Source: Haliotis asinina
Lineage: Eukaryota
NCBI RefSeq assembly: GCF_037392515.1
Contig: NC_090285.1
Location: 70,717,515-70,781,514 of the forward strand
Direction of reading: 5' to 3'
Length of the DNA: 64,000 nucleotides
Numbering within the stretch: the first letter of the stretch is position 1; every line of letters begins with the position of its first letter. A model generated the notes under the pieces. That model was not told where the DNA came from. It made no database searches and was given only the letters and a program-made list of their open reading frames with translations. Below, one piece after another: positions 3,217 to 55,779 of this stretch. The position numbers and the translations under genes are program-made.

Positions 3217-3346
3217 TGTAAGATAACCAACTATGGCGGGCGGGAGCACATGTCTGTTTATTTCAGGTTAGCCGCTTACAACATAATAAATGGAATGTCG
3301 CTTGGGACATAAATAAAAGAATGCCGCTTAAGGCAATTACGTTACA
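3217..3346 (-). repeat. 3' LTR of the gypsy element (130 bp; carries a 13-bp insertion aatgccgcttaag relative to the 5' LTR)
   Basis: Matches 7801-7917 with about 2 substitutions plus one 13-bp indel. TG...CA termini. Contains an AATAAA-like motif. Confidence 0.8.
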
Positions 3347-3357
3347 TCTCCCTCCTT
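3347..3357 (-). promoter_or_regulatory. Polypurine tract (plus-strand primer site) of the retrotransposon
   Basis: Element-sense sequence AAGGAGGGAGA lies immediately upstream of the 3' LTR. Confidence 0.6.
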
Positions 3358-3637
3358 AAGATTAAGAGTCCATGAATGAGGGATAAGATTATAGCACTGG
3401 TAGCGTAAATGTGAAATGTCACTGAAAGTTACGTATACGGCAAAAGTCTTTTTTTTTTTTTTTTTTTTTTTCAGAGCACAGAGTTCACGATGATGATAGC
3501 TATATAAAACGCATAGACAAACTAAATTTGGCACAAGCATTTCTTTGGCACTGCGAAACAAATTAAAGTCTTTCAGGAGAAACCTAACTACTATTAACGT
3601 TGAACTTAACGTATGACCCTAGCACTTTAAGAGTCAT

Positions 3638-4267
3638 TCACAGATCGAGCCTGCTGGGTGGTGCTACACGTCTGCCTGATCTGGTGGTGACAGTCGGATT
3701 GGCTGCCGGGGTGGTGGTGACTGGGCTGCTGACGTCTCTGCGAGGTGAAGGTAGTGCACCATGTTGCACAGAGTATGGTTCGGCGAGCGGCGGTGGTGGT
3801 GTGACGTTTGGGGTGAACTGCATTTCTCCAAGTTGTCGGCTGGGCTGACTGCTCGTGTTTGCTGGAATTGTGACTTTCCTGAGAAACTTGTGGTTCCGCC
3901 TGTAAGTCCCGACATCAGTGGTGACGTGATACGATCTGGGTTTGGAGTGGTGACTCTGGATTACTCCGGGCTTCCATGACTTTCCAGTGTCAACTGGAGC
4001 GAGTCTAACTTGGTCTCCTGGCTGAAGCTCTGGGAGGGGTTTAGCACTCTTCTTAGCATCGTGGTAGAACTTTTGCTTTTGCTTCTCAAGAGTCAAGTGG
4101 CGTTTGGTCTCTTGCCTGTTGTAAGGTTGAGGAATGAGTATCTCACGTGCTGCAGGAAGTGTGTTTTCCTGCTCATTAGTAGCTGGGTCGGAGACAGGTT
4201 GATTCCTTCCAGAGGGGTTGTCCTGTAGTCGAGGAGTGCCAGGTACTTGTCTTCGCTCTTCCTCCAC
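3638..4267 (-). CDS. Integrase C-terminal region of the retrotransposon (post-frameshift frame), with a Pro-rich tail
   Basis: ORF contains ...QKQKFYHDAKKSAKPLPELQPGDQVRL..., the conserved integrase C-terminal GD.V.L region. It overlaps the upstream IN ORF at 4093-4267 in a different frame, implying a single frameshift near 4100-4150. No chromodomain is evident. Confidence 0.6.
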   Translation of the reverse strand: MEEERRQVPGTPRLQDNPSGRNQPVSDPATNEQENTLPAAREILIPQPYNRQETKRHLTLEKQKQKFYHDAKKSAKPLPELQPGDQVRLAPVDTGKSWKPGVIQSHHSKPRSYHVTTDVGTYRRNHKFLRKVTIPANTSSQPSRQLGEMQFTPNVTPPPPLAEPYSVQHGALPSPRRDVSSPVTTTPAANPTVTTRSGRRVAPPSRLDL

Positions 4268-5148
4268 ATATTTTTGACTGTTTGGACTGCCCTTTCAGCT
4301 TCCCCGTTGGAACTTTGGAAGTGTGGACTTGACGTTTCGTGTAGAATATCATAGGACTTACAGAAGTTGCTGAACTCTGCACAATCAAACTGTGGACCGT
4401 TGTCTGTTCTCAGTTTGCTCGGTATTCCGTGGATGCTGAACACCGATTTCATAGCTTCAATGGTGGATGATGCAGTAAGAGACTTGACCTCTATGGCATC
4501 GATGTACTTGGAATAATAGTCGACGAGGACCAGGTATTTTCGGCCCTGGAAGTCGAATAGATCACTCCCAACCATCTGGTAAGGTAAGTCTGGTGGTGGA
4601 GTAGGTTGGAGGGGCTCACTTTGTTGTCTCCTTGAGTATTCAGCACACTTGTCACAGTCTCTGATGGCTTGTTCTGTCTCGTCGTTCATACATGGCCAAT
4701 ACATCACTTCACGAGCTCTCTGTTTGCTCTTCACCATTCCCAGATGGGACTCATGGATGATGTTGATCATGTGTCTGCGTAGAGTAGGTGGTATGACAAT
4801 GCGCAAGCCCTTGTAAATGATGCCATCTGCTACTGAGAGTTGCTCACGTGAATCCCAGTATGGACGGGCTTCAATTGGGACGTTTCTTCTGTCGTCTGGC
4901 CATCCATTTAGGACAACTTCTGTCACATACTTGAGCTCTTTAAGTGTGAGGTCTCTGATTTCTTCATATCTGTCTGGAGTGATATCCAACATGTGGACTC
5001 TGTCCGAATCCAAGACTTCAGAGCTAGTGTGAGCTGTGTTCAAATATGCTCTAGACAAAGCATCAGCTGCCTGCATGTCAGAGCCTTTCCTGTAATTCAC
5101 TACAAGATCATAGGATTGCAGCTTTAACAACATCCGCTGCAGTCTCAT
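4093..5148 (-). CDS. RNase H C-terminus plus integrase (HHCC zinc finger and DDE core) of the retrotransposon
   Basis: The 351-aa ORF contains ADALSRAYL (the RNase H/IN junction motif), HESHLG...CDKCAEY (HHCC), and DLFDF / TDNGPQF / SNGEAER (D,D,E). It is in the same frame as the upstream pol ORF, separated from it only by one stop codon at 5173-5175. Confidence 0.8.
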   Translation of the reverse strand: MRLQRMLLKLQSYDLVVNYRKGSDMQAADALSRAYLNTAHTSSEVLDSDRVHMLDITPDRYEEIRDLTLKELKYVTEVVLNGWPDDRRNVPIEARPYWDSREQLSVADGIIYKGLRIVIPPTLRRHMINIIHESHLGMVKSKQRAREVMYWPCMNDETEQAIRDCDKCAEYSRRQQSEPLQPTPPPDLPYQMVGSDLFDFQGRKYLVLVDYYSKYIDAIEVKSLTASSTIEAMKSVFSIHGIPSKLRTDNGPQFDCAEFSNFCKSYDILHETSSPHFQSSNGEAERAVQTVKNMWRKSEDKYLALLDYRTTPLEGINLSPTQLLMSRKTHFLQHVRYSFLNLTTGKRPNAT

Positions 5149-5172
5149 GGGTGCAGAGAGGATTGGTTTCTT

Positions 5173-7473
5173 TCAAATGATCTCTAGGGGCTTGTGGTCA
5201 TTATACACAACAGTCTCTTTCCCAAAGATGTAGCAATGAAACTTGCTGGCTGCGTACACAATTGACAACATCTCTTTTTCAATTTGCACGTAGCGCTTTT
5301 CTGTCTCTGTAAGTGACCTTGAGGTGAATGCAACTGGTCTGGAATTCTGAATCAGGACTGCTCCCAAGCCTGACTGTGATGCGTCACACTGGATTTCAAC
5401 AGGTTGGTTGACATCGAAGAGAGCGAGTACTGGTTGTGAGCTGCACATCTTCTTCAGCTTGTCAAAGCTGTCTTGCTGTTCATGGTCCCAGTGAAACATG
5501 ACATCTGATTTCAGTAGGATTCGTAGAGGCGCATCAACTTTGCTGAGATCTGGAAGGAACTTTGCTAGGTACTGGACAAGTCCTAGTAGTCTTCGGACTC
5601 CTTCTTTGTCCTCGGGTGCAGGCATTTCAGTAATTGCCTGTACTTTTGCTGGGTCTGGTCTCAAGCCCTCAGCAGACACAATGTGTCCGACGTAGTGGAC
5701 TTCCGATTTCCGGATAGAGCATTTGTCAAAGTTTAGCTTGAGATTGTATCTGGTTGCTCGCTCTACAACTTGTTTCAGAATTTCATTGTGCTGAGCTGTG
5801 TCAACTCCTGCGATGAGGATATCATCCATAATAGCAGCTGCACCATTGATGCCTTCAAGCATCTGATCCATAATCCGTTGATAAATCTCGGGGGCGGACT
5901 TGATACCAAACGGTAGTCTGAGCCAACGATACCTTCCGATGGGAGTATTGAATGTTGTTAGGTATGATGACTTCTTGTCGAGCTTGATCTGTAGAAACCC
6001 TGATTTGGCGTCAAGAGTTGAGAATACCTTGGTCCCAGGAATATTAGCTACGACCTCTTCTATGGTCTTAAGGGGATGATGCTCTCTCAAGATGGCTTTA
6101 TTCAAGTCCTTTGGATCGATGCATATTCTGATTTTGTCCTTTCGGATGGAGACCACCATGGAACTGACCCACTCTGTGGGTTCTTCAACCTTGACGATGT
6201 AGCCATTTTCTTCCATCTCATGGAGTTTTTCCATGATCTTTGGTTTCAGGGCTGCTGGTTGTCTACGAGGAGGGTGAACAACTCCCCTTGCGTCTGGATC
6301 AAGCTTTATACAGTACTCTCCTGGGAGGGTCCCTGTTGTTTTCACGAGTTCCGGGAAATCCGCAAATTGTTTAACGGATTCTGAGCTGTCACTTGTCAGA
6401 TTCACTCGAGCTATGAGTCCTAGCTTTTCAGACGTGTCTCCACTGATCACGTTTTCTTGGTCAATATCAATGATGAGGAAAGTGACGGGTATAGTTTTAC
6501 CTTCGTACTTCACAGGTAGCTGAACAGCTCCTTCTGGATATATCTTGTGGTTAGAATAGGACCGGAGGACTCTTGATGACTTGGCTAATTCACACTGGAT
6601 ATTGATTTTGTCAAAACATGTTTTCACAATGATATTACACTTGGCACCCGTGTCAATACGAACTGTTGCTGGTTTGTCGCTGATTTGTACTGTTTCAATC
6701 CACTTGTCATCACTGTCTTTTTCTTGCTTATGCTGAAGAGAATGAATTTGCAGAAGGTCGTCCTCAGATTCGCTGTCGAACTCGTTGTCGTCATCTGATT
6801 GAGCTTCTTGTAAAGTGTGAACTTGTTTGCGTTTTCTCTTTGTGCACACCTGGATCCAATGGTTTGGCTTTTTACAGTAGTTGCATATAGTGTTTTTGGC
6901 TGGACACTTCCCATCAGTGTGTGCTTTGCTTATTTCTAGACCACACTTGCCACAGGTCCCTTGATCACTGTTTGTTTTAGAGTTCTTGTTTGGATCTTGA
7001 TGCTGTTTCCTCTCGGATTTTCTACTGTTACATTTGTGTGGCTTGTGTCTTGTGTCTTTAAGAGACGAAACTTTCTGATCTTCTCCTCTAATCATAGTGA
7101 GGTGCATTTGAGATACTTCAAATTGCCTACCAATGTCTAGGGCTTTTGCAAGTGTCAAATCTTGACCCTGGTCTAACAGACGTTCTTGAATTTTGGAATG
7201 AGAAACTCCTGCAATAATACTGTCAATTAAGATGTCATCTGGATTTCCATAATCACAGTCCATGAGAATTAACTTAAGGTCCTTCACAAAATTGTCAAAA
7301 TTCTCACCGACTTTTTGTTTCCTTTCTCTCAGCTTGAATCTTGCAATTCTCTTGTTTTTCCTTGGTCTGACATACGTTTCTAACTTGTTCATGATTACGT
7401 TTGGGTTGTCTTCCTCCCCTTCTTCCCATCTTAAAGTTTTATACACTTCACGGCCCTGTCGGCCGATCCACAT
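5173..7473 (-). CDS. Gag (capsid fragment plus zinc knuckle), aspartic protease, reverse transcriptase and N-terminal RNase H polyprotein of the retrotransposon
   Basis: The 766-aa ORF carries a CX2CX4HX4C knuckle (about 6844-6885), protease IDTGA (6646-6654), RT motifs LDAKSGFLQIKLD and IMDDILIAG (5821-5829), and RNase H ...VYNDHKPLEII followed by a stop that is in frame with the next ORF. Confidence 0.85.
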   Translation of the reverse strand: MWIGRQGREVYKTLRWEEGEEDNPNVIMNKLETYVRPRKNKRIARFKLRERKQKVGENFDNFVKDLKLILMDCDYGNPDDILIDSIIAGVSHSKIQERLLDQGQDLTLAKALDIGRQFEVSQMHLTMIRGEDQKVSSLKDTRHKPHKCNSRKSERKQHQDPNKNSKTNSDQGTCGKCGLEISKAHTDGKCPAKNTICNYCKKPNHWIQVCTKRKRKQVHTLQEAQSDDDNEFDSESEDDLLQIHSLQHKQEKDSDDKWIETVQISDKPATVRIDTGAKCNIIVKTCFDKINIQCELAKSSRVLRSYSNHKIYPEGAVQLPVKYEGKTIPVTFLIIDIDQENVISGDTSEKLGLIARVNLTSDSSESVKQFADFPELVKTTGTLPGEYCIKLDPDARGVVHPPRRQPAALKPKIMEKLHEMEENGYIVKVEEPTEWVSSMVVSIRKDKIRICIDPKDLNKAILREHHPLKTIEEVVANIPGTKVFSTLDAKSGFLQIKLDKKSSYLTTFNTPIGRYRWLRLPFGIKSAPEIYQRIMDQMLEGINGAAAIMDDILIAGVDTAQHNEILKQVVERATRYNLKLNFDKCSIRKSEVHYVGHIVSAEGLRPDPAKVQAITEMPAPEDKEGVRRLLGLVQYLAKFLPDLSKVDAPLRILLKSDVMFHWDHEQQDSFDKLKKMCSSQPVLALFDVNQPVEIQCDASQSGLGAVLIQNSRPVAFTSRSLTETEKRYVQIEKEMLSIVYAASKFHCYIFGKETVVYNDHKPLEII

Positions 7474-7782
7474 ACCTAGCCAGCCCGAACGATCTTTATC
7501 GTTTGCTTCTCACTGTGGGCCTTTAAAAATAAAAGTCACATGTTGTTTGAATCTCTGAAATTCCTCGAAAAGATCTGGAGCATTCCAATCGAGTGTAGGG
7601 TGATCAAAATGCATACTAGACGCCATGTTTGACGTTTTACCGACTTGTACTTGAAAATGTTCAAAACAAGTATTTCTGAAGTGTTGTGGATTGCAAAGTC
7701 AATTACCGATACACAATGAATTCCTGTAATCTTTGTAACGATGTCAAATGTCTGACAGCTTTTCATTGGGTATTTTTCCGAT

Positions 7783-7800
7783 TAACCGCTTCTGACACCA
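7783..7800 (-). other. Primer-binding site of the retrotransposon (tRNA-complementary, begins TGG)
   Basis: The complement reads TGGTGTCAGAAGCGGTTA directly after the ...CA end of the 5' LTR. The cognate tRNA was not identified. Confidence 0.55.
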
Positions 7801-7917
7801 TGTAAGATAACCAACTATGGCGGGCGGGAGCACATGTCTGTTTATTTCCGGTTAGCCGCTTACAACATAATAAATGGAATGTCGCTTGGGACATAAATAA
7901 AAGGCAATTACATTACA
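7801..7917 (-). repeat. 5' LTR of the gypsy element (117 bp)
   Basis: Near-identical to 3217-3346 with TG...CA termini. It is followed on the plus strand by GCCGG. Confidence 0.8.
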
Positions 7918-7922
7918 GCCGG
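7918..7922. repeat. Target-site duplication GCCGG, right copy
   Basis: Identical to 3212-3216. Confidence 0.75.
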
Positions 7923-8582
7923 ATGCCCATCATATGCCATTATTTAAAAATATCCATGGTATTCCTTGTCTGATCGTAACAAAATATCCCAGCAGTGTAG
8001 TTTGTTTCGGATGCTTGGATGGTATAGTTACTCAATTTGATCCTATTTCTGTGTTTTTAACCTCGATATTTAATCATGTTACATGAAAATATGATGTCTA
8101 CAGGCACGTAGCAAGCCATTTGTTTCCCTCCGGAAGATTGCAAAGCTTTATATTTAAGTAATTTTGAGTGTTGGTTCAGCTGTGATAGCAAATATCATAC
8201 GTAAAAATTTGGTAGCTATGGTAGCTACAATGGTTTATTATTTATGATAATAAAAACACACAGTTGATTTATTTGAATTCGTAAACAATAAACGATGACT
8301 TTGCCTTCGGTAGAGAAATCTGAAAATTTTCTAATGTAAAAAACCCTTATTTCACCTATTTACCCAAGTACACAGCAAATGCCTGTATGTATTCCTTATG
8401 TAAAGAAATTCCGTTGGTATCCTCAAAACACTTTCGGCCCATAAGTGTTTTCAGGCTGCATGCGACACAGAGATTACATCTTCCTTGCTGTAACTCGCGT
8501 TTGATGGTGTAAACCTACACGTGTTATTTGTCATCATTCTCTGGATGGTCAATTAATGAATTCATAACAGGTATAAGTAACA

Positions 8583-16589: not shown

Positions 16590-17385
16590 GTGTATTTTGG
16601 GAGAAGCTAGTAGGAGGTTGTGTACTGGTGTGTTTTGGGAGAAGCTAGTAGGAGGTTGTGTACTGATGTGTTTTGGGAGGAGCTAGTAGGAGGTTGTCTA
16701 CTGATGTGTTTTGGGAGAAGCTAGTAGGAGGTTGTTAACTGGTGTGTTTTGGGAGAAGCTAGTAGGAGGTTGTGTACTGGTGTGTTTTGGGAGAAGCTAG
16801 TAGGAGGTTATATACTGATGTGTTTTGGGAGAAGCTAGTACGAGGTTGTCTACTGATGTGTTTTGGGAGAAGTGAGAAAGAGGTTGTCTACTGCTCTGTT
16901 TTGGGAGATATTAGTACGAGGTTATCTTGTGGTATGTTTTGGGAGAAGTGAGTAGGAGGTTGTCTACTGGTGTGTTTTGAGAGAAGTTAGTATGAGGTTT
17001 TCTACTGATGTGCTTTAGGAGAAGTGAGTACGAGGTTGTCTACTGGTGTGTTTTGGGAGAAGGTAGTAGGAGGTTGTCTACTGATGTGCATTAGAAGAAG
17101 TGAGTAGGAGGTTGTCTACTGATGTGTTTTTAGAGATGTTAGTACGAGGTTATCTACAGATGTGTTTTGGGAGAAGTGAGTAGGAGGTTGTTAACTGGTG
17201 TGTTTTGGGAGAAGCTAGTAGGAGGTTGTCTAATGATGTGTTTTCGGAGATGTGAGTAGGAAGTTGTCTACTGACGTGGTTAGGGAGAAGTTAATAGGAG
17301 ATTGTCTAGTGGGGTGTTTTGGGAGAAGTGACTAGGAGGTTGTCTGCTGATGTGGTTTGGGGGAAGTATTTAGTCCTATTTTTAC
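16590..17385. repeat. Minisatellite, 38-bp unit with about 21 copies (intron 6)
   Basis: gtgttttgggagaagctagtaggaggttgtgtactgat and variants repeat. Confidence 0.85.
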
Positions 17386-17794: not shown

Positions 17795-18545
17795 CTCAGT
17801 GGTCATTGTGTGGGAGTACAACACTGAGACCTTGTGTGAGAGTTAGTGGTCATTGTGTGGGAGTACAACACTAAGTGGTCATTGTGTGGAAGTACAACAC
17901 TTAGTGGTCATTGTGTGGAAGTACAACACTTAGTGGTCATTGTGTGGGAGTACAACACTCAGTGATCATTGTGTGAGAGTACAACACTGAGTGATCATTG
18001 TGTGAGAGTACAACACTTAGTGATCATTGTGAGGGAGTACAACACTCAGTGGTCATTGTGTAGAAGTACAACACTGAATGATCATTGTGTGGGAGTACAA
18101 CACAGTGATGATTGTGTGGGAGTACAACACTGAGTGATCACTGTGTAGGATTACAACACTCAGTGATGATTGTGTGGGAGTACAACACTTAGTGGTCATT
18201 GTGTGGGAGTACAACACTGAGAAATTGTGTGGGAGTACAACACTCAGTGATCATTGAGTGGGAGTACAGCACTGAGTGATCATTTTGTAGGAGTACAACA
18301 CTGTGTGATCATTGTGTAGGAGTACAACACTGAGTAATCATTGTTTGGGAGTACAACACTCAGTGATTATTGTTTGGGAGTACAACACTCAGTGATCATT
18401 GTGTTGGAGTACAACACTGAATGATCATTGTGTGGGAGTACAACACTGAGTGATCTTTGTTTAGGAGTACAACACTGAGACATTGTTGGGGGGGTACAAC
18501 ACTCAGTGATCATTGTGTAGGAGTAAAACACTTAGTGGTCATTGT
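17795..18545. repeat. Minisatellite, 29-bp unit with about 26 copies (intron 7)
   Basis: gtgggagtacaacactgagtgatcattgt and variants repeat. Confidence 0.85.
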
Positions 18546-18580
18546 ATGGGAGTGCTCACAGTAATGATGGACTTTTCCAG

Positions 18581-20599: not shown

Positions 20600-20782
20600 G
20601 TAGGGATTATGTCTCATGATGTTTGACTTACAGGCTCATGTTTGAGTATGTTTGACTGTGCAAAGCTAATGTATGATGATGTTTTGACTGCCAGGTTAAT
20701 GTTTGACAATGTTTGACTTTTAGGCTGATGTTTGATAATGATTTGACTACCAGGTTGATGTTTGAATATGTTTGACTTACAG
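20600..20782. repeat. Intron 11. The entire 183-bp intron is about 6 tandem copies of a 30-bp unit, each containing a pseudo-3' splice site.
   Basis: Units of the form tgtttgacttacaggctcatgtttgagta and variants. Every unit carries ttgact(t/g/a)acag or ccag. The last unit provides the real acceptor ttacag|GCTGATGAG. Confidence 0.8.
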
Positions 20783-20939
20783 GCTGATGAGTATGCTGTG
20801 TACAGCATAAACCAGCAGCGTCTGAGATACCTAGTGGAGTTCAGCCTGGAGGGGGACCAAGTTCGGGATGTAAGTCTGGCAGACTGCCAGCAAGACATGG
20901 AGCAGACAGCTTTGGCTGACATGTTGCAGGACAACTTAG
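20783..20939 (+). CDS. PARP4: PARP4 exon 12 (catalytic Glu of the H-Y-E triad)
   Basis: ADEYAVYSINQQRLRYLVEFSLEGDQVRDVSLADCQQDMEQTALADMLQDNLG resembles vertebrate DDEFVVYKTNQVKMKYIIKFS..GDQIKD and the PARP1-type NEYIVY catalytic-Glu motif. Donor G|gtatgt, phase 1. Confidence 0.8.
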
Positions 20940-23825: not shown

Positions 23826-24489
23826 TTGTTGGACTGTTGTAGGCCTTACTAACCGTACTCCCAGTTGCAGTAAGATGTTTGTAGATGACTGACTTAGACT
23901 GATGTACTATGCAACACTACTGTTGGACTGTTGTAGGCCTTACTAACCGTACTCCCAGTTGCAGTAAGATGTTTGTAGATGACTGACTTAGACTGATGTA
24001 CTATGCAACACTACTGTTGGACTGTTGTAGGCCTTACTAACCGCACTCCCAGTTGCAGTAAGATGTTTGTAGATGACTGACTTAGACTGATGTACTATGC
24101 AACACTACTGTTGGACTGTTGTAGGCCTTACTAACCGCACTCCCAGTTGCAGTAAGATGTTTGTAGATGACTGACTTAGACTGATGTACTATGCAACACT
24201 ACTGTTGGACTGTTGTAGGCCTTACTAACCGCACTCCCAGTTGCAGTAAGATGTTTGTAGATGACTGACTTAGACTGATGTACTATGCAACACTACTGTT
24301 GGACTGTTGTAGGCCTTACTAACCGCACTCCCAGTTGCAGTAAGATGTTTGTAGATGACTGACTTAGACTGATGTACTATGCAACACTACTGTTGGACTG
24401 TTGTAGGCCTTACTAACCGCACGCCCAGTTGCAGTAAGATGTTTGTAGATGACTGACTTAGACTGATGTACTATGCATCACTACTGCAG
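23826..24489. repeat. Minisatellite, 94-bp unit with about 7 copies. The last copy is mutated into the acceptor of exon 14.
   Basis: gttggactgttgtaggccttactaaccg.actcccagttgcagtaagatgtttgtagatgactgacttagactgatgtactatgcaacactact repeats. The final unit reads ...tatgcatcactactgcag|GTGATAG. Confidence 0.85.
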
Positions 24490-24714
24490 GTGATAGTTCT
24501 CCAGGAGTACTACAACAACAGTGACACTGCTGTGGAGGCCAAGTATGTGTTTCCTCTAGATGACATGGCGGCTGTGTGTGGCTTTGAAGCGTTCATCAAT
24601 GACAAGCACATTGTAGGCGAGGTCAAAGAGAAGGAGCAAGCTCACAAGGAATACAGGAAGGCTGTCAGTGAGGGTCATGGAGCTTATCTGATGGACAGAG
24701 ATGAAGAGACACCG
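24490..24714 (+). CDS. PARP4: PARP4 exon 14 (VIT domain, N-terminal part)
   Basis: VIVLQEYYNNSDTAVEAKYVFPLDDMAAVCGFEAFINDKHIVGEVKEKEQAHKEYRKAVSEGHGAYLMDRDEETP resembles vertebrate VIVFQTYTNKSHVPIEAKYIFPLDDKAAVCGFEAFINGKHIVGEIKEKEEAQQEY.EAVTQGHGAYLM. Donor CCG|gtaagt. Confidence 0.85.
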
Positions 24715-25200
24715 GTAAGTATGGGTGAAGGTCAGCAGTGAGGGTCATGGAGCTTATCTGATGGACTGAGATGAAGAGACACCGGTAAGTATGGGTGAAG
24801 GTCAGCAGTGAGGGTCATGGAGCTTATCTGATGGACTGAGATGAAGAGACACCGGTAAGTATGGGTGAAGGTCAGCAGTGAGGGTCATGGAGCTTATCTG
24901 ATGGACTGAGATGAAGAGACACCGGTAAGTATGGGTGAAGGTCAGCAGTGAAGGTTATGTTGCTTATCTGATGGACACAGATGAAGAGACACTGATAAGT
25001 TTGGGTGAAGATCAATACTGAAGTTCGTGGAGGTGATCTGATGGACAGAGATGAAGAGACCAGTAGGTTTGGGAGAAGGTCAGTAGTGAGGGTCGTGGAG
25101 GTGATCTGATGGACAGAGATGAAGAAAGAAAGGTAAGTTCAGTCACCAGTGAAGGTTTTGGGGTGTGTCATAATGGAAGGTCATTTAGCCTTTCTGATGG
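24645..25200. repeat. 70-bp tandem array of about 6 copies that duplicates the last 45 nt of exon 14 plus its GT donor
   Basis: The unit ...agtgagggtcatggagcttatctgatggac(a/t)gagatgaagagacaccg|gtaagtatgggtgaaggtcagc repeats at 24715, 24785, 24855 and 24925, then degenerate copies. Copies 2-4 carry TGA (ggacTgag) and the read-through frame hits CAG CAG TGA. Confidence 0.85.
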
Positions 25201-26509: not shown

Positions 26510-27483
26510 CATAGTCCTGTCATGTAGTGCTGTCATGTAGTTGTGTCTTGTAGTGCTGTCAGGTGTCTACTCATGTAACTGTTGGTCTACAGTGTCTACT
26601 CATGTAGCTGTTGGTCTACAGTGTCTACTCATGTAACTGTTGGTTTATAGTTTCTACTCATGTAACTGTTGGTTTATAGTTTCTACTCATGTAACTGTTG
26701 GTTTATAGTTTCTACTCGTGTAACTGTTGGTTTATAGTTTCTACTCATGTAGCTCTTGGTCTGTAGTGTCTACTCATGTAACTGTTGGTTTATAGTTTCT
26801 ACTCATGTAGCTGTTGGTTTATAGTTTCTACTCATGTAACTATTGGTTTATAGTTTCTACTCATGTAACTGTTGGTTTATAGTTTCTACTCATGTAACTG
26901 TTGGTTTATAGTTTCTACTCATGTAACTGTTGGTTTATAGTTTCTACTCGTGTAGCTGTTGGTTTATAGTTTCTACTCATGTAACTGTTTGTCTGTAGTG
27001 TCTACTCATGTAACTGTTGGTTTATAGTTTCTACTCATGTAACTGTTGGTCTACAGTGTCTACTCATGTAACTGTTGGTTTATAGTTTCTACTCATGTAA
27101 CTGTTGGTTTATAGTTTCTACTCGTGTAACTGTTGGTTTATAGTTTCTACTCGTGTAACTGTTGGTTTATAGTTTCTACTCGTGTAGCTCTTGGTCTGTA
27201 GTGTCTACTCATGTAATTGTTGGTTTATAGTTTCTACTCATGTAACTGTTGGTCTGTAGGGTCTACTCATGTAACTGTTGGTCTGTAGTGTCTACTTATG
27301 TAACTGTTGGTCTGTAGTGTCTACTCGTGTAGCTGTTGGTCTGTAGTGTCTACTCGTGTATCTGTTGGTCTGTAGTGTCTACTCATGTAGCTGTTGGTCT
27401 GTAGTGTCTACTCATGTAGCTGTTGGTCTGTAGTGTCAACTCATGTAGCTGTTGGTCTGTAGTGTCTACTCATGTTCCTCCAG
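26510..27483. repeat. Minisatellite, 29-bp unit with about 32 copies. Its final unit forms the acceptor of exon 17.
   Basis: Units of the form (g/t)tctactcatgtaactgttggtttatagt and gtctactcatgtagctgttggtctgtagt. The last unit is mutated to gtctactcatgttcctccag|AGAACTG. Confidence 0.85.
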
Positions 27484-27621
27484 AGAACTGCTGCTAAGGC
27501 GGTTGTGGAGATGTGTGATGGACAGTCAATACAAGATGGCTTCCACCTCCTGATTGGGCTGGCTGAGATACACGTGCCTCGGATGTGGGTTGAGAGACAT
27601 CCGGACAAGGACATGCATCAG
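27484..27621 (+). CDS. PARP4: PARP4 exon 17
   Basis: RTAAKAVVEMCDGQSIQDGFHLLIGLAEIHVPRMWVERHPDKDMHQ resembles vertebrate ..CKAVISTMEGSSLD.SGFSLHIGLSAAYLPRMWVEKHPEKE. Donor CAG|gtaggc, phase 0. Confidence 0.8.
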
Positions 27622-28110
27622 GTAGGCTGGCAGGGGAATGATTGTATGGTTTGTGGATGGAGAGACATGCATCAGGTAGGCTGGCAGGGGAATGATTGTA
27701 TGGTTTGTGGATGGAGAGACATGCATCAGGTAGGCTGGCAGGGGAATGATTGTATGGTTTGTGGATGGAGAGACATGCATCAGGTAGGCTGGCAGGGGAA
27801 TGATTGTATGGTTTGTGGATGGAGAGACATGCATCAGGTAGGCTGGCAGGGGAATGATTTTATGGTTTGTGGATGGAGAGACATGCATCAGGTAGGCTGG
27901 CAGGGGAATGATTGTATGGTTTGTGGATGGAGAGACATGCATCAGGTAGGCTGGCAGGGGAATGATTGTATGGTTTGTGGATGGAGAGACATGCATCAGG
28001 TAGGCTGGCAGGGGAATGATTTTATGGTTTGTGGATGGAGAGACATGCATCAGGTAGGCTGGCAGGGGAATGATTGTATGGTTTGTGGATGGAGAGACAT
28101 GCATGAACCA
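27604..28110. repeat. 54-bp tandem array of about 9.5 copies that reiterates the exon 17 3' end plus its GT donor, in frame
   Basis: The unit acatgcatcag|gtaggctggcaggggaatgattgtatggtttgtggatggagag repeats. Each copy carries CAG|gtaggc at codon phase 0. The exon frame stays open through all copies (the 252-aa ORF at 27472-28230, encoding VGWQGNDCMVCGWRDMHQ per unit). Confidence 0.85.
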
Positions 28111-28235
28111 GGGGATCAAAGCTGCATGTTGTATGTGTATTTTAATTGTTGTTGTTTTAGTAATATCATGTTGTGTCAGGTTCATGTTGAATATTCTCTC
28201 CCTATTTTTTCTTTGATCTTCATTCTGTAATCTAG

Positions 28236-28422
28236 GCCTGCATGTTGACATTTTACCCTGAGTTTGAAGCGGATGAGGATGATGATGTGGAGATTGTGTT
28301 CCTCCTTGACCTCTCCAACTCCATGTCAGGTGATGCAGTGCTGGATGCCAAGAAGCTGTTGATGATGTTGCTGCACAACTTGCCACCACGCTCCACCTTC
28401 AACGTCCTCTGCTTCGGAACAG
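28236..28422 (+). CDS. PARP4: PARP4 exon 18 (start of the vWA domain, with a MIDAS-like DxSxS motif)
   Basis: Acceptor atctag|GCC. ACMLTFYPEFEADEDDDVEIVFLLDLSNSMSGDAVLDAKKLLMMLLHNLPPRSTFNVLCFGTG resembles vertebrate EACMLVFQPDLD...VIICLDCSSSMEGVTFLQAKQIALHAL.....VNIIQFGTG. Donor G|gtcagt, phase 1. Confidence 0.8.
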
Positions 28423-28573
28423 GTCAGTTTCATCCACGCAATGTGTTGCTAAGGGTGCGATTTGATGATCAATTGATGAAAAGATGTGGACAGATAGATC
28501 ATTATTAATGATATTGGGAGCACTGGGAGTAATGTTTGAGTAACCATGGACATGGTATTGGTGATGTTGTCAG

Positions 28574-30904: not shown

Positions 30905-31093
30905 TCTGTGCTCATTTGTCTAAATCTCACCACTCTGGCACTTATCTCACCACTCTGGTGTATCTTATCTCACCACAATAGGATGGCATATCTCACCACT
31001 CTGGTGTGTCTTATCTCACCACTTATCTCACCACTTATCTCACCACTCTGGTGTGTCGTTTCTCACCACTTATCTCAAGCCTTCCATCAACAG
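30905..31093. repeat. Short-unit tandem repeat (about 24 bp; tatctcaccactctggtgtgtct variants) running up to the exon 22 acceptor
   Basis: About 7 degenerate copies ending ...tctcaagccttccatcaacag|GTGAAG. Confidence 0.7.
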
Positions 31094-32639: not shown

Positions 32640-34260
32640 GGCCCTGACGTTGACAGGTTGTGGAGTCGATGTTGACAGGTTGTGGAGTGTGTGTTGACAG
32701 TTTGTGGAATGGATGTTAGCATCTGGTGACCTTGATATTGACATGTTGTCTCCACAACATATCAGCATTCTACATGTCAACATCCACTCCACAACATGTC
32801 AACATCCACCCAACGACATATCATCATCCTCTCCACAACATGTCAACATCCACCCAACGACATATCATCATCCTCTCCACAACATGTCAACATCCACCCA
32901 ACGACATATCAGCATCCTCTCCACAACATGTCAACATCCACCCAACGACATATCATTATCCTCTCCACAACATGTCAACATCCACCCAACAACATATCAG
33001 CATCCTCTCCACAATGTGTCAACATCCCCCCAACGACATATCAGCATCCTCTCCACAACATGTCAACATCCACCCAACGACATATCATCATCCTCTCCAC
33101 AACATGTCAACATCCACCCAACAACATATCAGCATCCTCTCCACAATGTGTCAACATCCACCCAACAACATATCAGCATCCTACATGTCAACGTCAACTC
33201 CACAACATGTCAACATCCACCCGACAACATATCGGCATCCTACATGTCAACGTCAACTCCACAACATGTCAACATCCACCCAACAACATATCAGCATCCT
33301 CTCCACAATGTGTCAACATCCACCCAACAACATATCAGCATCCTGCATGTCAACGTCAACTCCACAACATGTCAACATCCACCCAACAACATATCGGCAT
33401 CCTACATGTCAACGTCAACTCCACAACATGTCAACATCCACCCAACAACATATCAGCATCCTCTCCACAATGTGTCAACATCCACCCAACAACATATCAG
33501 CATCCTACATGTCAACATCCACTCCACAACATGTCAAAACCCACTCCACAAAATGTCAACATCCACTCCATGACATGTGAACATCCACAACATGTCAAAA
33601 CCCACTCCACTACATGTCAGCATCCACTCCACAGCATATCAGCATCCACTCCACAGCATGTCAGCATCCTCTCTACAACATGTCAATATCCTCTCCACTA
33701 CATGTCAACATTCTCTCCACTACATGTCAACATCCTCTCCACTACATGTCAACATCCACTCCACTACATGTCAACATCCACTCCACTACATGTCAACATC
33801 CACTCCACAACATGTCAACATCCGCTCCACTGCATGTCAACATCCACTCCACTACATGTCAACATCCACTCCACAACATGTCAACATCCGCTCCACTACA
33901 TGTCAACATCCACTCCACTACATGTCAACATCCACTCCACTACATGTCAACATCCACTCCACTACATGTCAACATCCACTCCACAACACGTCAACAGCCT
34001 CTCCACTACATGTCAGCATCCACAGCACAACATGTCAACATCCACTCCACAGCATGTCAGCATCCACAGCACAACATGTCAACATCCACTCCACAGCATG
34101 TCAGCATCCTCTCTACAACATGTCAATATCCTCTCCACTACATGTCAACATCCACAGCACAACATGTCAACATCCTCTCCATTACACGTCAACAGCCTCT
34201 TAAGACGTTGTGGAGAGGATGTTGACATGTAGTGGAGTAGATGTTGACATGGTGTAACTG
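32640..34260. repeat. Intronic satellite array of about 1.6 kb. The base unit is 22 bp (ctccactacatgtcaacatcca), with 44/66-bp higher-order variants, and it is strongly strand-asymmetric (C/A-rich). Both ends carry 2-3 inverted copies of the unit.
   Basis: Main array in one orientation from about 32745 to 34200. Reverse-orientation units lie at 32645-32712 (gttgacaggttgtggag...) and 34205-34250 (gttgtggagaggatgttgacatgtagtggag...). The shared flank agagtatgtggc.c...gttgaca occurs at about 32621 and about 34262. The array generates ORFs up to 478 aa that are artefactual. Confidence 0.8.
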
Positions 34261-45899: not shown

Positions 45900-47035
45900 G
45901 GTATCTCATTCCCAAACTTTCTGTGTCCCATTCCCAAACCACTCTGTATCCCACTCCTAAACCCTTTGTATATCACTCCCAAAACCTCTGTATCCCACTC
46001 CTAAACCCTTTGTATCTCACTCCCAAACCCTCTGTATCCCACTCCTAAACCCTTTGTATCCCAAACTGAGACCTCTGTATCCCATTCCCACAACCTCTGT
46101 ATCCCAAACCCAAACCCTCTGTATCCCATCCCGACAACCTCTGTATCCCAAACCCAAACCCTTTGTATCCCATACCCACAACCTCTGTATCCCAAACCCA
46201 AACCACTCTGTATCCCACTCCTAAACACTTTGTATCTCACTCTCAAACCCTCTGTATCCCATTCCCACAACCTCAGTATTCCAAACCCAAACCCAACCCC
46301 TCTGTATCCCATTCCCACACCCTCTGTATCCCACTCCTAAACCCTTTGTATCTCACTCCCAAACCCTCTGTATCCCACTCCGAAACCCTTTGTATCTCAC
46401 TCCCAAACCACTCTGTATCCCACTCCTAAATCCTTTGTATCTCACTCCCAAACCCTCTGTATCCCACTCCTAAACCATTTGTATCTCACTCCCAAACCCT
46501 CTGTATCCCACACCCACACCCTCTGTATCCCACTCCTAAACCCTTTGTATCTCACTTCCAAACCACTCTGTATCCCAATCCTAAACCCTTTGTATCTCAC
46601 TCCCAAACCCTCTGTATCCCACACCCCCACCCTCTGTATCCCACTCCTAAACCCTTTGTATCTCACTCCCAAACCACTCTGTATCCCACTCCTAAACCCT
46701 TTGTATCTCACTCCCAAACCCTCTGTATCCCATTCCCACAACATTTGTATCCCAAACCCAAACCCTCTGTATCCCATTCCAACACCCTCTGTATCCCAAA
46801 CCCTCTGTATCCCACACCCAAACCACTCTGTATCCCACTCCTAAACCCTTTGTATCTCACTCCCAAACCCTCTGTATCCCACACCCACACCCTCTGTATC
46901 CCACACCCACACCCTCTGTATCCCACTCTCAAACCCTCTGTATCCCAAACCCAAACCCTCTGTATCCCACACCCACACCCTCTGTATCCCACACCCACTG
47001 TATCCCACACCCAAACCACATGTCATTGTATCCCA
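45900..47035. repeat. Satellite array of about 1.1 kb, with a roughly 22-bp base unit (ctctgtatcccactcctaaacc / ctttgtatctcactcccaaacc), starting exactly at the tail of the preceding SINE
   Basis: The array begins ...aaactcactcactcactcacttggtatctcattcccaaactttctgtgtcccattcccaaacc... A SINE-body fragment in the same orientation follows the array. The array generates artefactual ORFs on both strands (46001-47077). Confidence 0.8.
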
Positions 47036-53911: not shown

Positions 53912-54961
53912 ATATGATACTAGATACACTACAGTGTGCATTGTTGCCGGAAGAGCCTCCCGAGGAAAGTAAGCCACATGCAGCACAATTTCAACAAAGG
54001 ATGAGAAGTCGTATGAAATGTTCTCTTCCTCCATTGTCTGACACTGGGGGCCTTGAACAGGCAGTGGCAGCTGAAAGGATTGTTGATGAGTTTGAGGAGG
54101 AGTCCGAGGATGAAGACATGGGGTTTGGATTGTTTGATGATGACATTCCTACAAGTTCCAAATATGTCACTGTCAGACACGAGGATGTGCCCGCAAACAT
54201 AGCAATAGAAGGAGGCTCCCCACCAACACTGTCACTAAAGACAGGTTTTGCAGGAAAGGATATTGATGATGCCGCACAATCAGCGAAAAAGAAGAAAAAG
54301 TCCAAAGCATTCATTCCTCCTCCTCCTCCAGTCATCCATCCAGTGATGTCTGCCAGACAAGACTCCCTACTTGCTAAAGGCACTAGAGGAACATTATTCT
54401 CTGTTGATGCTGCAAGTCATGGTCGTGCTTCTCTGCTTCAGCAAATAGGTACTGGCAAACAGTTGAAGAAAGCTGTTGGGCCTCAATTGCAAGGTTACTC
54501 ATCTACGCAACTTCAAGCTGAAATGTTTTCCCTTGCTAAAGGAGCTCCTCTCCCTGCTCGATATATGCTTACTAGAGCCTCACCTCCCCCTACTGGTCAT
54601 CCAGGACTAACTCCTCCTCCCCCTCCCCCTCCCCTTCCCCCTCACCACCATCGTGAAGCCACACCTCTTCCACCTCCACCAGCAGGACTTAAGGCAGCCC
54701 CACCTCCACCTCCAGGACTAGCTCCTCCCCCCTCTCCACCCCCCCCTCCAGGACTAGCTCCTCCCCCCTCTCCTCCTCCCCCTCCAGGACTAGCCCCAAA
54801 CCAACAACTTATAAGATCACGGAGAACAAAATCTGTGACTTCTTTTGGCAAGATTTGCCCTCCGTCACCTCCACCAGATGTCTCCAGGACATCTCCTCCT
54901 GCAAGAGCTGATGCATTGGCCAAAAGGGCAAGAAGTAGAAGCAGAGATCGAGATTTAGCAG
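53912..54961 (+). CDS. PARP4: PARP4 exon 30, a large C-terminal-region exon with an acidic stretch, a K-rich patch, a WH2-like motif and polyproline repeats
   Basis: Acceptor tttctttcag|AT. (D)MILDTLQCALLPEEPPEE...DEFEEESEDEDMGFGLFDDD...KKKKKSKAFIPPPPP...RASLLQQIGTGKQLKKAVG... then (PGLAPPPSPPPPPGLAPPPSPPPPPGLAP). Donor G|gtaaga. Phase 1 on both sides matches the flanking exons. Confidence 0.6.
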
Positions 54962-55779
54962 GTAAGATTGGAAAATCTGACTTTCACTGTCAACAGTTTT
55001 AGGAAACTTGGCATAGACCAGGGCCTAGGTTTTCGAAGCTCTTTAGAGCTGGTTAATGTTAAGTAATTTAATGTTAATGTATTGCACTTATGACTGTCTT
55101 AGCATTAAGAGAGCTTTGAAAATATAGGCCCAGCGGTCTTTTCCACACGATGATTTTAATCTTAAATCCTGTATATAACAACCTACGATTGTAGTGGTCT
55201 TTTCCACAAGACAATTTTAATTTTAAGTCCTGTATATAACAACCTACGACTTTAAAGTGTGTGATGGACTTAAGCTCTGTGTTTAACAATGGCTTTTGAT
55301 TTACTGTTGAAACTAGCATTTGGTAGGGTCATTAATACACTGTAGATACCAGTGTTTGATAGGGTCATTGATGCTCTGTAGATACAGTGAGACTGTGTAT
55401 AGAGGGAGAAGAAACTCCTCGAAACCCCTGAACGTATGCCGAATGTCGATACGTAACCAGTGTAGCCAATATGGCGGCAGCGTAGTATTTAATATTGAGT
55501 CCAGTCTGTTTTCAACAGCTGATTAAATTCGCTGAGTGTCGTGACAACTGAAACCCTACATGTAGAAGATAAGTAAACTATTTTGTCACTGCAGTTTAAG
55601 TCAAATAATTGGTATTAGTGTCAGTATTAGGACGGTAGACTTTTTGTAAAGTTTCAACTCGTTATGTTATCACTCACTGGCTTTCACTTGATTCACCTTG
55701 AAGATAGACTAAATTGTGCCGATAAAAAATTCTTTCACACGTTTGTTTAATTTTTAGAAGGGAAACATGTCTTAGGTTG

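Follow-up and report, generated by a model that had tools for sequence, protein, structure and literature searches.

A PARP4 gene in Haliotis asinina carries, directly after one of its exons, a tandem array in which the exon end, its 5' splice site and the beginning of the intron are repeated together, giving one authentic donor followed by eight identical copies at intervals of 54 nt. We consider this array, with a probability of roughly 0.7, to be a neutral junction minisatellite of the mirage or F7 IVS7 type, the exon being spliced from the first donor. It adds a further case to a class of repeats already described, and its sole unusual property is that all copies lie in frame. All coordinates below refer to the window, that is, the whole 64,000-nt stretch of DNA that was analysed, unless a related locus is named. 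GC content is about 0.41.

Results

Host gene and position of the array

Translations of the plus-strand exons match the Pfam BRCT, PARP catalytic, VIT and VWA families, and human PARP4, found in the PDB sequence set, is matched at E = 6e-64 in the catalytic region and at E = 1.3e-106 over residues 639-1037, with many substitutions. The host gene is PARP4. Within it, the VIT and vWA exons enclose the array, which occupies the intron separating the exons labelled here E17 and E18 (Table 1), and the junction falls about 19 residues before the vWA match. The Q/A junction produced by joining these exons agrees with relatives in which the two form one uninterrupted exon, as well as with human PARP4, which reads ...PRMWVEKHPEKES-EACMLVF... 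at this point and has no insert. The junction itself sits in a short loop, ERHPDKDMHQ, whose sequence is variable and whose length is slightly variable among homologues.

Table 1. Coordinates of the E17/E18 junction array, its flanking exons and two further junction arrays of the same PARP4 gene.
Feature	Position	Strand	Description	Basis
Exon E17	27484..27621	+	138 nt, 46 codons, phase 0-0; encodes RTAAKAVVEMCDGQSIQDGFHLLIGLAEIHVPRMWVERHPDKDMHQ	Splice signals, human PARP4 alignment, homologous ORF fragments
Array unit 0	27584..27651	+	68 nt: 38 nt of exon end, authentic donor and 30 nt of intron start	Unit register, alignment with 54-nt units and with L003/L004 units
Authentic 5' splice site	27619..27627	+	CAG/GTAGGC, cleavage after 27621; 7/9 consensus positions	HQ/ACMLTF protein junction as in L001/L002 and human PARP4
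Full 54-nt units	27652..28083	+	Eight units, identical pseudo-donor in each	TRF, unit listing
Pseudo-donor cleavage sites	after 27675, 27729, 27783, 27837, 27891, 27945, 27999, 28053	+		Donor positions
Ninth copy	28084..28104	+	Incomplete, 21 nt, without GT donor	Unit listing
Intron tail	28105..28235	+	Non-repetitive; pyrimidine-rich tract and acceptor ...ctgtaatctag/G	Sequence
Exon E18	28236..28424	+	189 nt, phase 0-0; ACMLTFYPEFE...FGTG, start of the vWA region	Sequence, Pfam, human PARP4
Donor-side sister array	24666..25125	+	70-nt unit x6.6, two exons upstream of E17	Sequence, TRF
Acceptor-side junction array	20619..20789	+	~29-nt units with tttgacttacag/GCTGATG	Sequence

Structure of the junction array

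TRF identified an array of period 54 (27610-28104; score 976) that holds 9.2 copies at 99% matches and 0 indels, and the 54-nt repeat described in the original prediction is therefore real. E17 ends in ...GACATGCATCAG/gtaggctgg, after which the repeat continues for about 480 nt. The donor string CAGGTAGGC occurs nine times in exact 54-nt steps, first at 27619 and last at 28051, while at the tenth position, 28107, the GT is lost. The original count of about nine reiterations thus holds for the donors, with the meaning of one authentic site and eight copies. Likewise, part of the exon is indeed reiterated, as had been proposed, although its extent is not the 11 nt given originally: the identity between exon and unit covers 12 exonic nt without a gap (GACATGCATCAG) and, once a single 14-nt gap is allowed, 38 nt, reaching back to 27584.

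The eight copied units differ from one another at a single G/T site. This G>T change, which replaces Cys by Phe when read in the exon frame, is the sole variation within the array and is found in the units starting at 27814 and 27976, which are 162 nt apart. Its recurrence at a distance of exactly three units suggests a recent duplication of a 162-nt three-unit block. Unit 0, by contrast, is separated from the internal units by a 14-nt indel and two substitutions, whereas the internal units are 99% identical to each other. The 54-nt unit corresponds to the 68-nt unit 0 minus 14 nt located between two GACAT direct repeats.

This anatomy is that of a junction minisatellite, in which a head-to-tail intronic array with a unit of ~10-160 nt (here 54 nt in 9.2 copies) has a first monomer containing the exon/intron boundary, the splice site recurs in the copies (here eight times as CAG/GTAGGC) and the internal units are homogenised; unit 0 and the incomplete last unit were left out of that homogenisation. 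The earlier description of the array as a tandem duplication of the exon/intron junction itself is borne out, as unit 0 spans the boundary and identical donors follow it. Folding of three units gave no RNA structure signal (z = -0.94), Rfam had no match in the window, and no copy of the 54-nt unit was found in an exact-match scan of metagenome contigs. A remnant of exon 18 in the intron tail was also considered and set aside, its 10-nt exact match to the exon 18 start being too weak (33/1000 shuffles scored equally).

Reading frame and donor quality

A plus-strand ORF of 252 aa (27472..28230) runs from MFLQ/RTAAK through ...DKDMHQ into successive VGWQGNDCMVCGWRDMHQ units, and the exon frame is stop-free over 27622-28104, with no stop in any copy; in these respects the original prediction was accurate. 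One minus-strand frame is likewise free of stops through the array and gives an ORF of 287 aa. The open frame is not evidence of coding, because any 99%-identical array of period 54 with a stop-free unit will produce one.

Identical from -3 to +8, the nine donors all match 7/9 consensus positions and have an equal U1 duplex energy of -12.0 kcal/mol, a crude estimate by which the E17 donor ranks among the better donors of PARP4. From at least -12 to +33 the copies are the same as the authentic donor, and any of them would leave an intron of at least 182 nt, this being the length left by the last copy. Since the donors are identical and even the last leaves an intron of 182 nt, sequence alone disqualifies no copy. 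E17 and E18 are both phase 0 at either end and 54 nt is 18 codons without a stop, so that, as had been stated, use of copy k would lengthen the stretch between VIT and vWA by 18k residues while keeping the frame. A period that is a multiple of 3 and a frame that remains open through the copies are what would be expected of an expressed in-frame donor array.

These properties favour a reading in which the copies are alternative 5' splice sites, yielding PARP4 isoforms with 18, 36 or more additional residues between VIT and vWA, possibly coupled to copy-number polymorphism as in IFI6 (6-16). Nine identical, reasonably strong donors are available, the unit contributes 18 stop-free codons between two phase-0 exons, and the loop that would receive them is short and variable. 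There is also precedent in IFI6 and CBS, where two pseudo-sites are used besides the authentic donor, according to a mention in PMC1557585 that cites Turri et al. 1995 and Yang et al. 2000. Against this, no homologue has an insert, the unit peptide is rich in Trp, Cys and Met and eight units of it gave no match in Pfam, and both variant sites in the array change an amino acid (C>F). Together with the evidence from relatives presented below, these points make it unlikely that the copies serve as alternative donors. The more specific proposition, that at least one pseudo-donor is used appreciably and that PARP4 isoforms differ in 18-residue steps whose number varies among individuals, amounting to a protein-level VNTR, is slightly more doubtful again. 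A constitutively coding repeat was rejected: the frame is lost in relatives, and the repeat peptide, which an exonic VNTR should show in orthologues or in a known family, is absent from human PARP4, from the relatives with an uninterrupted exon and from Pfam.

The same junction in related species

A protein search with E17 and E18 against eukaryotic DNA in public assemblies returned 45 ORF fragments, none of them more than 76% identical to the query, the best protein matches being 59-76% identical. L003 and L004 represent two species that are related yet distinct, with 83-87% identity between their introns, and both carry a 68-nt array at the E17/E18 junction, with 10 copies in L003 and 12 in L004. 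This difference, like the G>T change that recurs three units apart in the one haplotype of the window, is an indirect sign of copy-number instability. Each unit combines the exon end (TGTGGGTGGAGAGACACCYGGATAGGCCYRACCATCAG) with the donor GTGGGT and roughly 30 nt of the intron, and intact CAG/GTGGGT donors number seven in L003 and nine in L004. A period of 68 nt does not preserve the frame: 11/14 donor copies are out of frame, and 11/14 lie behind stops in the exon frame, whereas in-frame isoforms of any importance would be expected to keep the frame in related species.

This comparison bears directly on the use of the copies as alternative donors, as the arrays of relatives at this junction are out of frame and the in-frame period of the window derives from a 14-nt deletion. 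A 68-nt period shifts the frame and the loss of 14 nt restores it, in the lineage of the window. Given that 54 nt is 68 minus 14, the frame-preserving length is derived and represents a one-in-three accident, multiples of 3 making up roughly a third of all periods. The suggestion that the array is a ready-made length-variable linker is accordingly not upheld, in view of the out-of-frame 68-nt arrays, the derived period, the homologues without an insert, the absence of a Pfam match for the unit peptide, the immediate stop that a 70-nt donor array of the same gene would give, and published arrays of this type, where the first donor works by itself or together with one or two of those that follow (PMC1557585; PMC3087553).

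Unit 0 of the window shares its left boundary TGTGGGT and its length of 68 nt with the units of L003/L004, while only the exons can be aligned between the window and L003. The arrays may or may not descend from one ancestral array; the left boundary and the unit length would speak for common descent, and the sporadic distribution and unalignable introns against it. A further locus, L006, contains at 430-720 a two-copy, in-frame duplication of 117 nt that comprises the end of E17 and its donor, with donors after 567 and 684. In its second copy conserved residues have been lost (AEIHVPRMWVE to AEIQVRRMWLE). This duplication is independent of the arrays in the other lineages. The sequence of L020 is identical to that of L006, and L007 is nearly identical.

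Recurrence at one junction raises an alternative in which the reiterated donor and G-rich units have been selected as an intronic splicing device, with multiple U1-binding sites or G-run enhancers securing recognition of the exon. The TGTGGGT boundary and 68-nt unit being the same in the window and in L003/L004, even though only exons align, would fit such a role, as would the maintenance of the array in both L003 and L004 despite an intron divergence of ~15%, and the independent 117-nt duplication in L006. However, among ~17 distinct intron-bearing relatives, reiteration occurs only in the window, the L003/L004 clade and L006, and loci that equal L003 in the closeness of their E17 to the window have no array. 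Moreover, the duplicated exon part of L006 has lost conserved residues, and the junction arrays that the same genomes carry at other exons, along with their many other intronic minisatellites, point to a general mutational process. We therefore think a selected splicing device improbable, more so than use of the copies as alternative donors.

The intron itself has a longer history than its repeat. A phase-0 Q/A intron is found in L005, L006 and L009-L029, as well as in many ORF fragments without an array, and because many distant relatives thus possess the intron without the repeat, the intron predates the array. In L001 (5118-5378), L002 (1239-1571) and L008 (2586-2906), E17 and E18 form one uninterrupted exon, most simply explained by loss of the intron, and there is no insert at the junction in L001 or L002. 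Intron gain by duplication had been a candidate, as the exon continues without a break in L001 and L002; it was rejected given the many distant relatives that have the intron and no array.

Further junction arrays in PARP4

About 22 minisatellites are present in the window, and between 16 and 34 kb nearly every PARP4 intron contains one. Besides the E17 array, two of these span PARP4 splice junctions, one on the donor side and one on the acceptor side (Table 1). The donor-side unit of 70 nt combines ~50 nt from the end of E15, the VIT exon (24490-24714), with the donor CCG/GTAAGTAT and ~20 nt of the intron that follows. The array presents four perfect near-consensus donors at 24714+70k, its period is no multiple of 3, and a stop follows eight codons past the first donor. 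Since the PARP4 exons are intact and conserved, the first of these four identical donors must normally be chosen, and the E15 array is thus an internal control for donor choice. On the acceptor side, ~29-nt units, several of them degenerate, make up, over 20600-20789, nearly all of the 183-nt intron before exon Ef, which starts at 20783, and reiterate the acceptor together with the first 7 nt of the exon.

The relatives provide a comparable case at another exon. L003 carries at 3258-7950 a 41/89-nt array that fills a 5.3-kb intron with ~50 copies of the 89-nt unit, which reiterates the E16a acceptor and the first ~20 nt of the exon (tgcag/GATATGTTCACAGTGAGTGTGG); a far shorter version occurs at 832-1410 of L004.

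Five other intronic minisatellites of the window (16591-17367, 17845-18553, 23827-24486, 26566-27475 and 30924-31077) stop 3-30 nt short of an acceptor, a far smaller distance than placement at random in their introns would suggest. The 94-nt unit of one of these acceptor-adjoining arrays contains CTTACTAAC...TTGCAG, which resembles a branch point followed by an acceptor. Exon-derived sequence, which would mark such arrays as decayed copies of junctions, is marginal in two of the five (15/300 and 6/300 shuffles) and absent in the rest.

Discussion

The differences between the array of the window and those of its relatives enabled us to propose a model for its origin. In this model, a 68-nt segment made up of 38 nt of exon and 30 nt of intron would have been duplicated in tandem, and a variant lacking the 14 nt between the GACAT direct repeats would subsequently have arisen. 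Spread of this 54-nt variant by unequal exchange or slippage would have generated the eight 99%-identical units. The spliceosome probably takes the most upstream, authentic donor, so that the eight copies would be pseudo-sites of little or no activity, lost with the intron. Homologous proteins without an insert, and the E15 array, which would be disruptive if its first donor were not used, lend this indirect support. Neither the in-frame period nor the open frame would then have a selected role; both would be by-products. Several considerations weigh against this reading. Nothing in the sequence disqualifies the copies, pseudo-donors are sometimes used in IFI6 and CBS, and transcripts that include an in-frame copy would not be subject to nonsense-mediated decay. 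Furthermore, the shared left boundary and 68-nt unit, found despite unalignable introns, could hint at retention by selection.

Known junction minisatellites provide close parallels. Intron 7 of human F7 contains a 37-bp VNTR whose first monomer straddles the exon/intron boundary; of the 5-9 identical donors, only the one lying furthest upstream is used (Borensztajn et al. 2006, PMC1557585). The PARP4 array resembles it in having an authentic donor followed by strictly identical pseudo-donors (4-8 in F7) that compete for one acceptor, in its G-rich intron start and in a comparable repeat number. Conversely, the F7 unit of 37 bp is no multiple of 3 and includes 4 nt of exon, whereas the PARP4 copies include 12-38 nt of exon and preserve the frame; use of the upstream donor is moreover an experimental result in F7, whereas in the PARP4 array we infer it. 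The arrays of LMNB2 and PDGF are likewise spliced from the authentic donor only (PMC1557585), and the units of the silent arrays in F7, PDGF and LMNB2 range from 37 to 100 bp (PMC1557585), a range that includes 54 nt and so argues against alternative donor use in PARP4.

The mirages of lancelets are located at 5' or 3' exon boundaries, sometimes several per gene, and evolve in concert with the exception of their boundary units; haplotypes differ in copy number and regular splicing is undisturbed (PMC3087553; PMC3902484), which again speaks for silent rather than alternative donors. PARP4 in the window resembles a mirage-bearing gene in combining donor-side arrays (E15, E17) with an acceptor-side array (Ef), and the abundance of mirage-like arrays is reminiscent of lancelets. 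No report of PARP4 as a mirage host gene is present in the mirage and junction-minisatellite literature cited here.

The minisatellites of IFI6 and CBS intron 13 lie on an exon/intron border and supply many donors, and in this they lend precedent to the idea of alternative donors originally put forward for PARP4. They differ from it in that use of the extra donors, a mere possibility in PARP4, is documented there, and in that the IFI6 unit, reportedly a dodecanucleotide, is far shorter. A second comparison can be drawn with Rogers-type intron gain, outlined in PMC3087553 as the tandem duplication of an AGGT-containing exon segment. Both involve tandem duplication of exon sequence together with a splice site, but the PARP4 intron is older than its array and common to many distant array-free relatives, rather than confined to the lineage that bears the duplication.

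An assembly artefact, with the repeat spuriously expanded or collapsed, is highly improbable: near-identical 54-nt units are hard to assemble, their copy number could be wrong, and one mis-assembled mirage is known from the amphioxus globin paper (PMC3087553), but the independent assemblies of two relatives also show arrays at this junction, the internal variants form an orderly pattern and the flanks are normal exons.

With nine identical in-frame donors at a spacing of 54 nt, the array offers a natural and clean test of how a 5' splice site is chosen. As all copies are in frame, any use of them would escape nonsense-mediated decay and be directly visible in RNA-seq. The frame-breaking 70-nt donor array and the acceptor array serve as internal controls in the same gene. 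The array opens no new biological question, and it poses a practical hazard for annotation, as gene callers that work ab initio or from ORFs can run the exon on through the repeat. Taken with L003, L004 and L006, it shows that separate lineages repeatedly have junction-spanning minisatellites at one and the same PARP4 exon, perhaps because G-rich donor regions resemble minisatellite core motifs.

Additional observations

Several other repeats were noted in the window and in the related loci. Within 32649-34251, a 22-nt array of ~66 copies (ACATGTCAACATCCACTCCACA) has on each side a short array of the reverse-complement unit (32649-32717 and 34210-34251), an inverted arrangement, and a C-rich 22-nt array of ~50 copies lies at 45901-46997. 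The PARP4 introns of L003 (1769-3075 and 11593-13392) and L004 (307-582, 1585-2040 and 5231-5736) contain very long (GT)n/(CA)n tracts of up to ~900 repeats, situated directly after donors as well as deep in introns, with nothing comparable in the window. Finally, six-frame translation revealed a long open stretch on the plus strand at ~54000-55000 of the window, which combines an acidic run with a WH2-like motif (LLQQIGTGKQLKKA) and with polyproline repeats (PPPPPGLAPPPSPPPP) that TRF also records as an array at 54700-54794; this stretch could belong to the C terminus of PARP4 or to a different gene.
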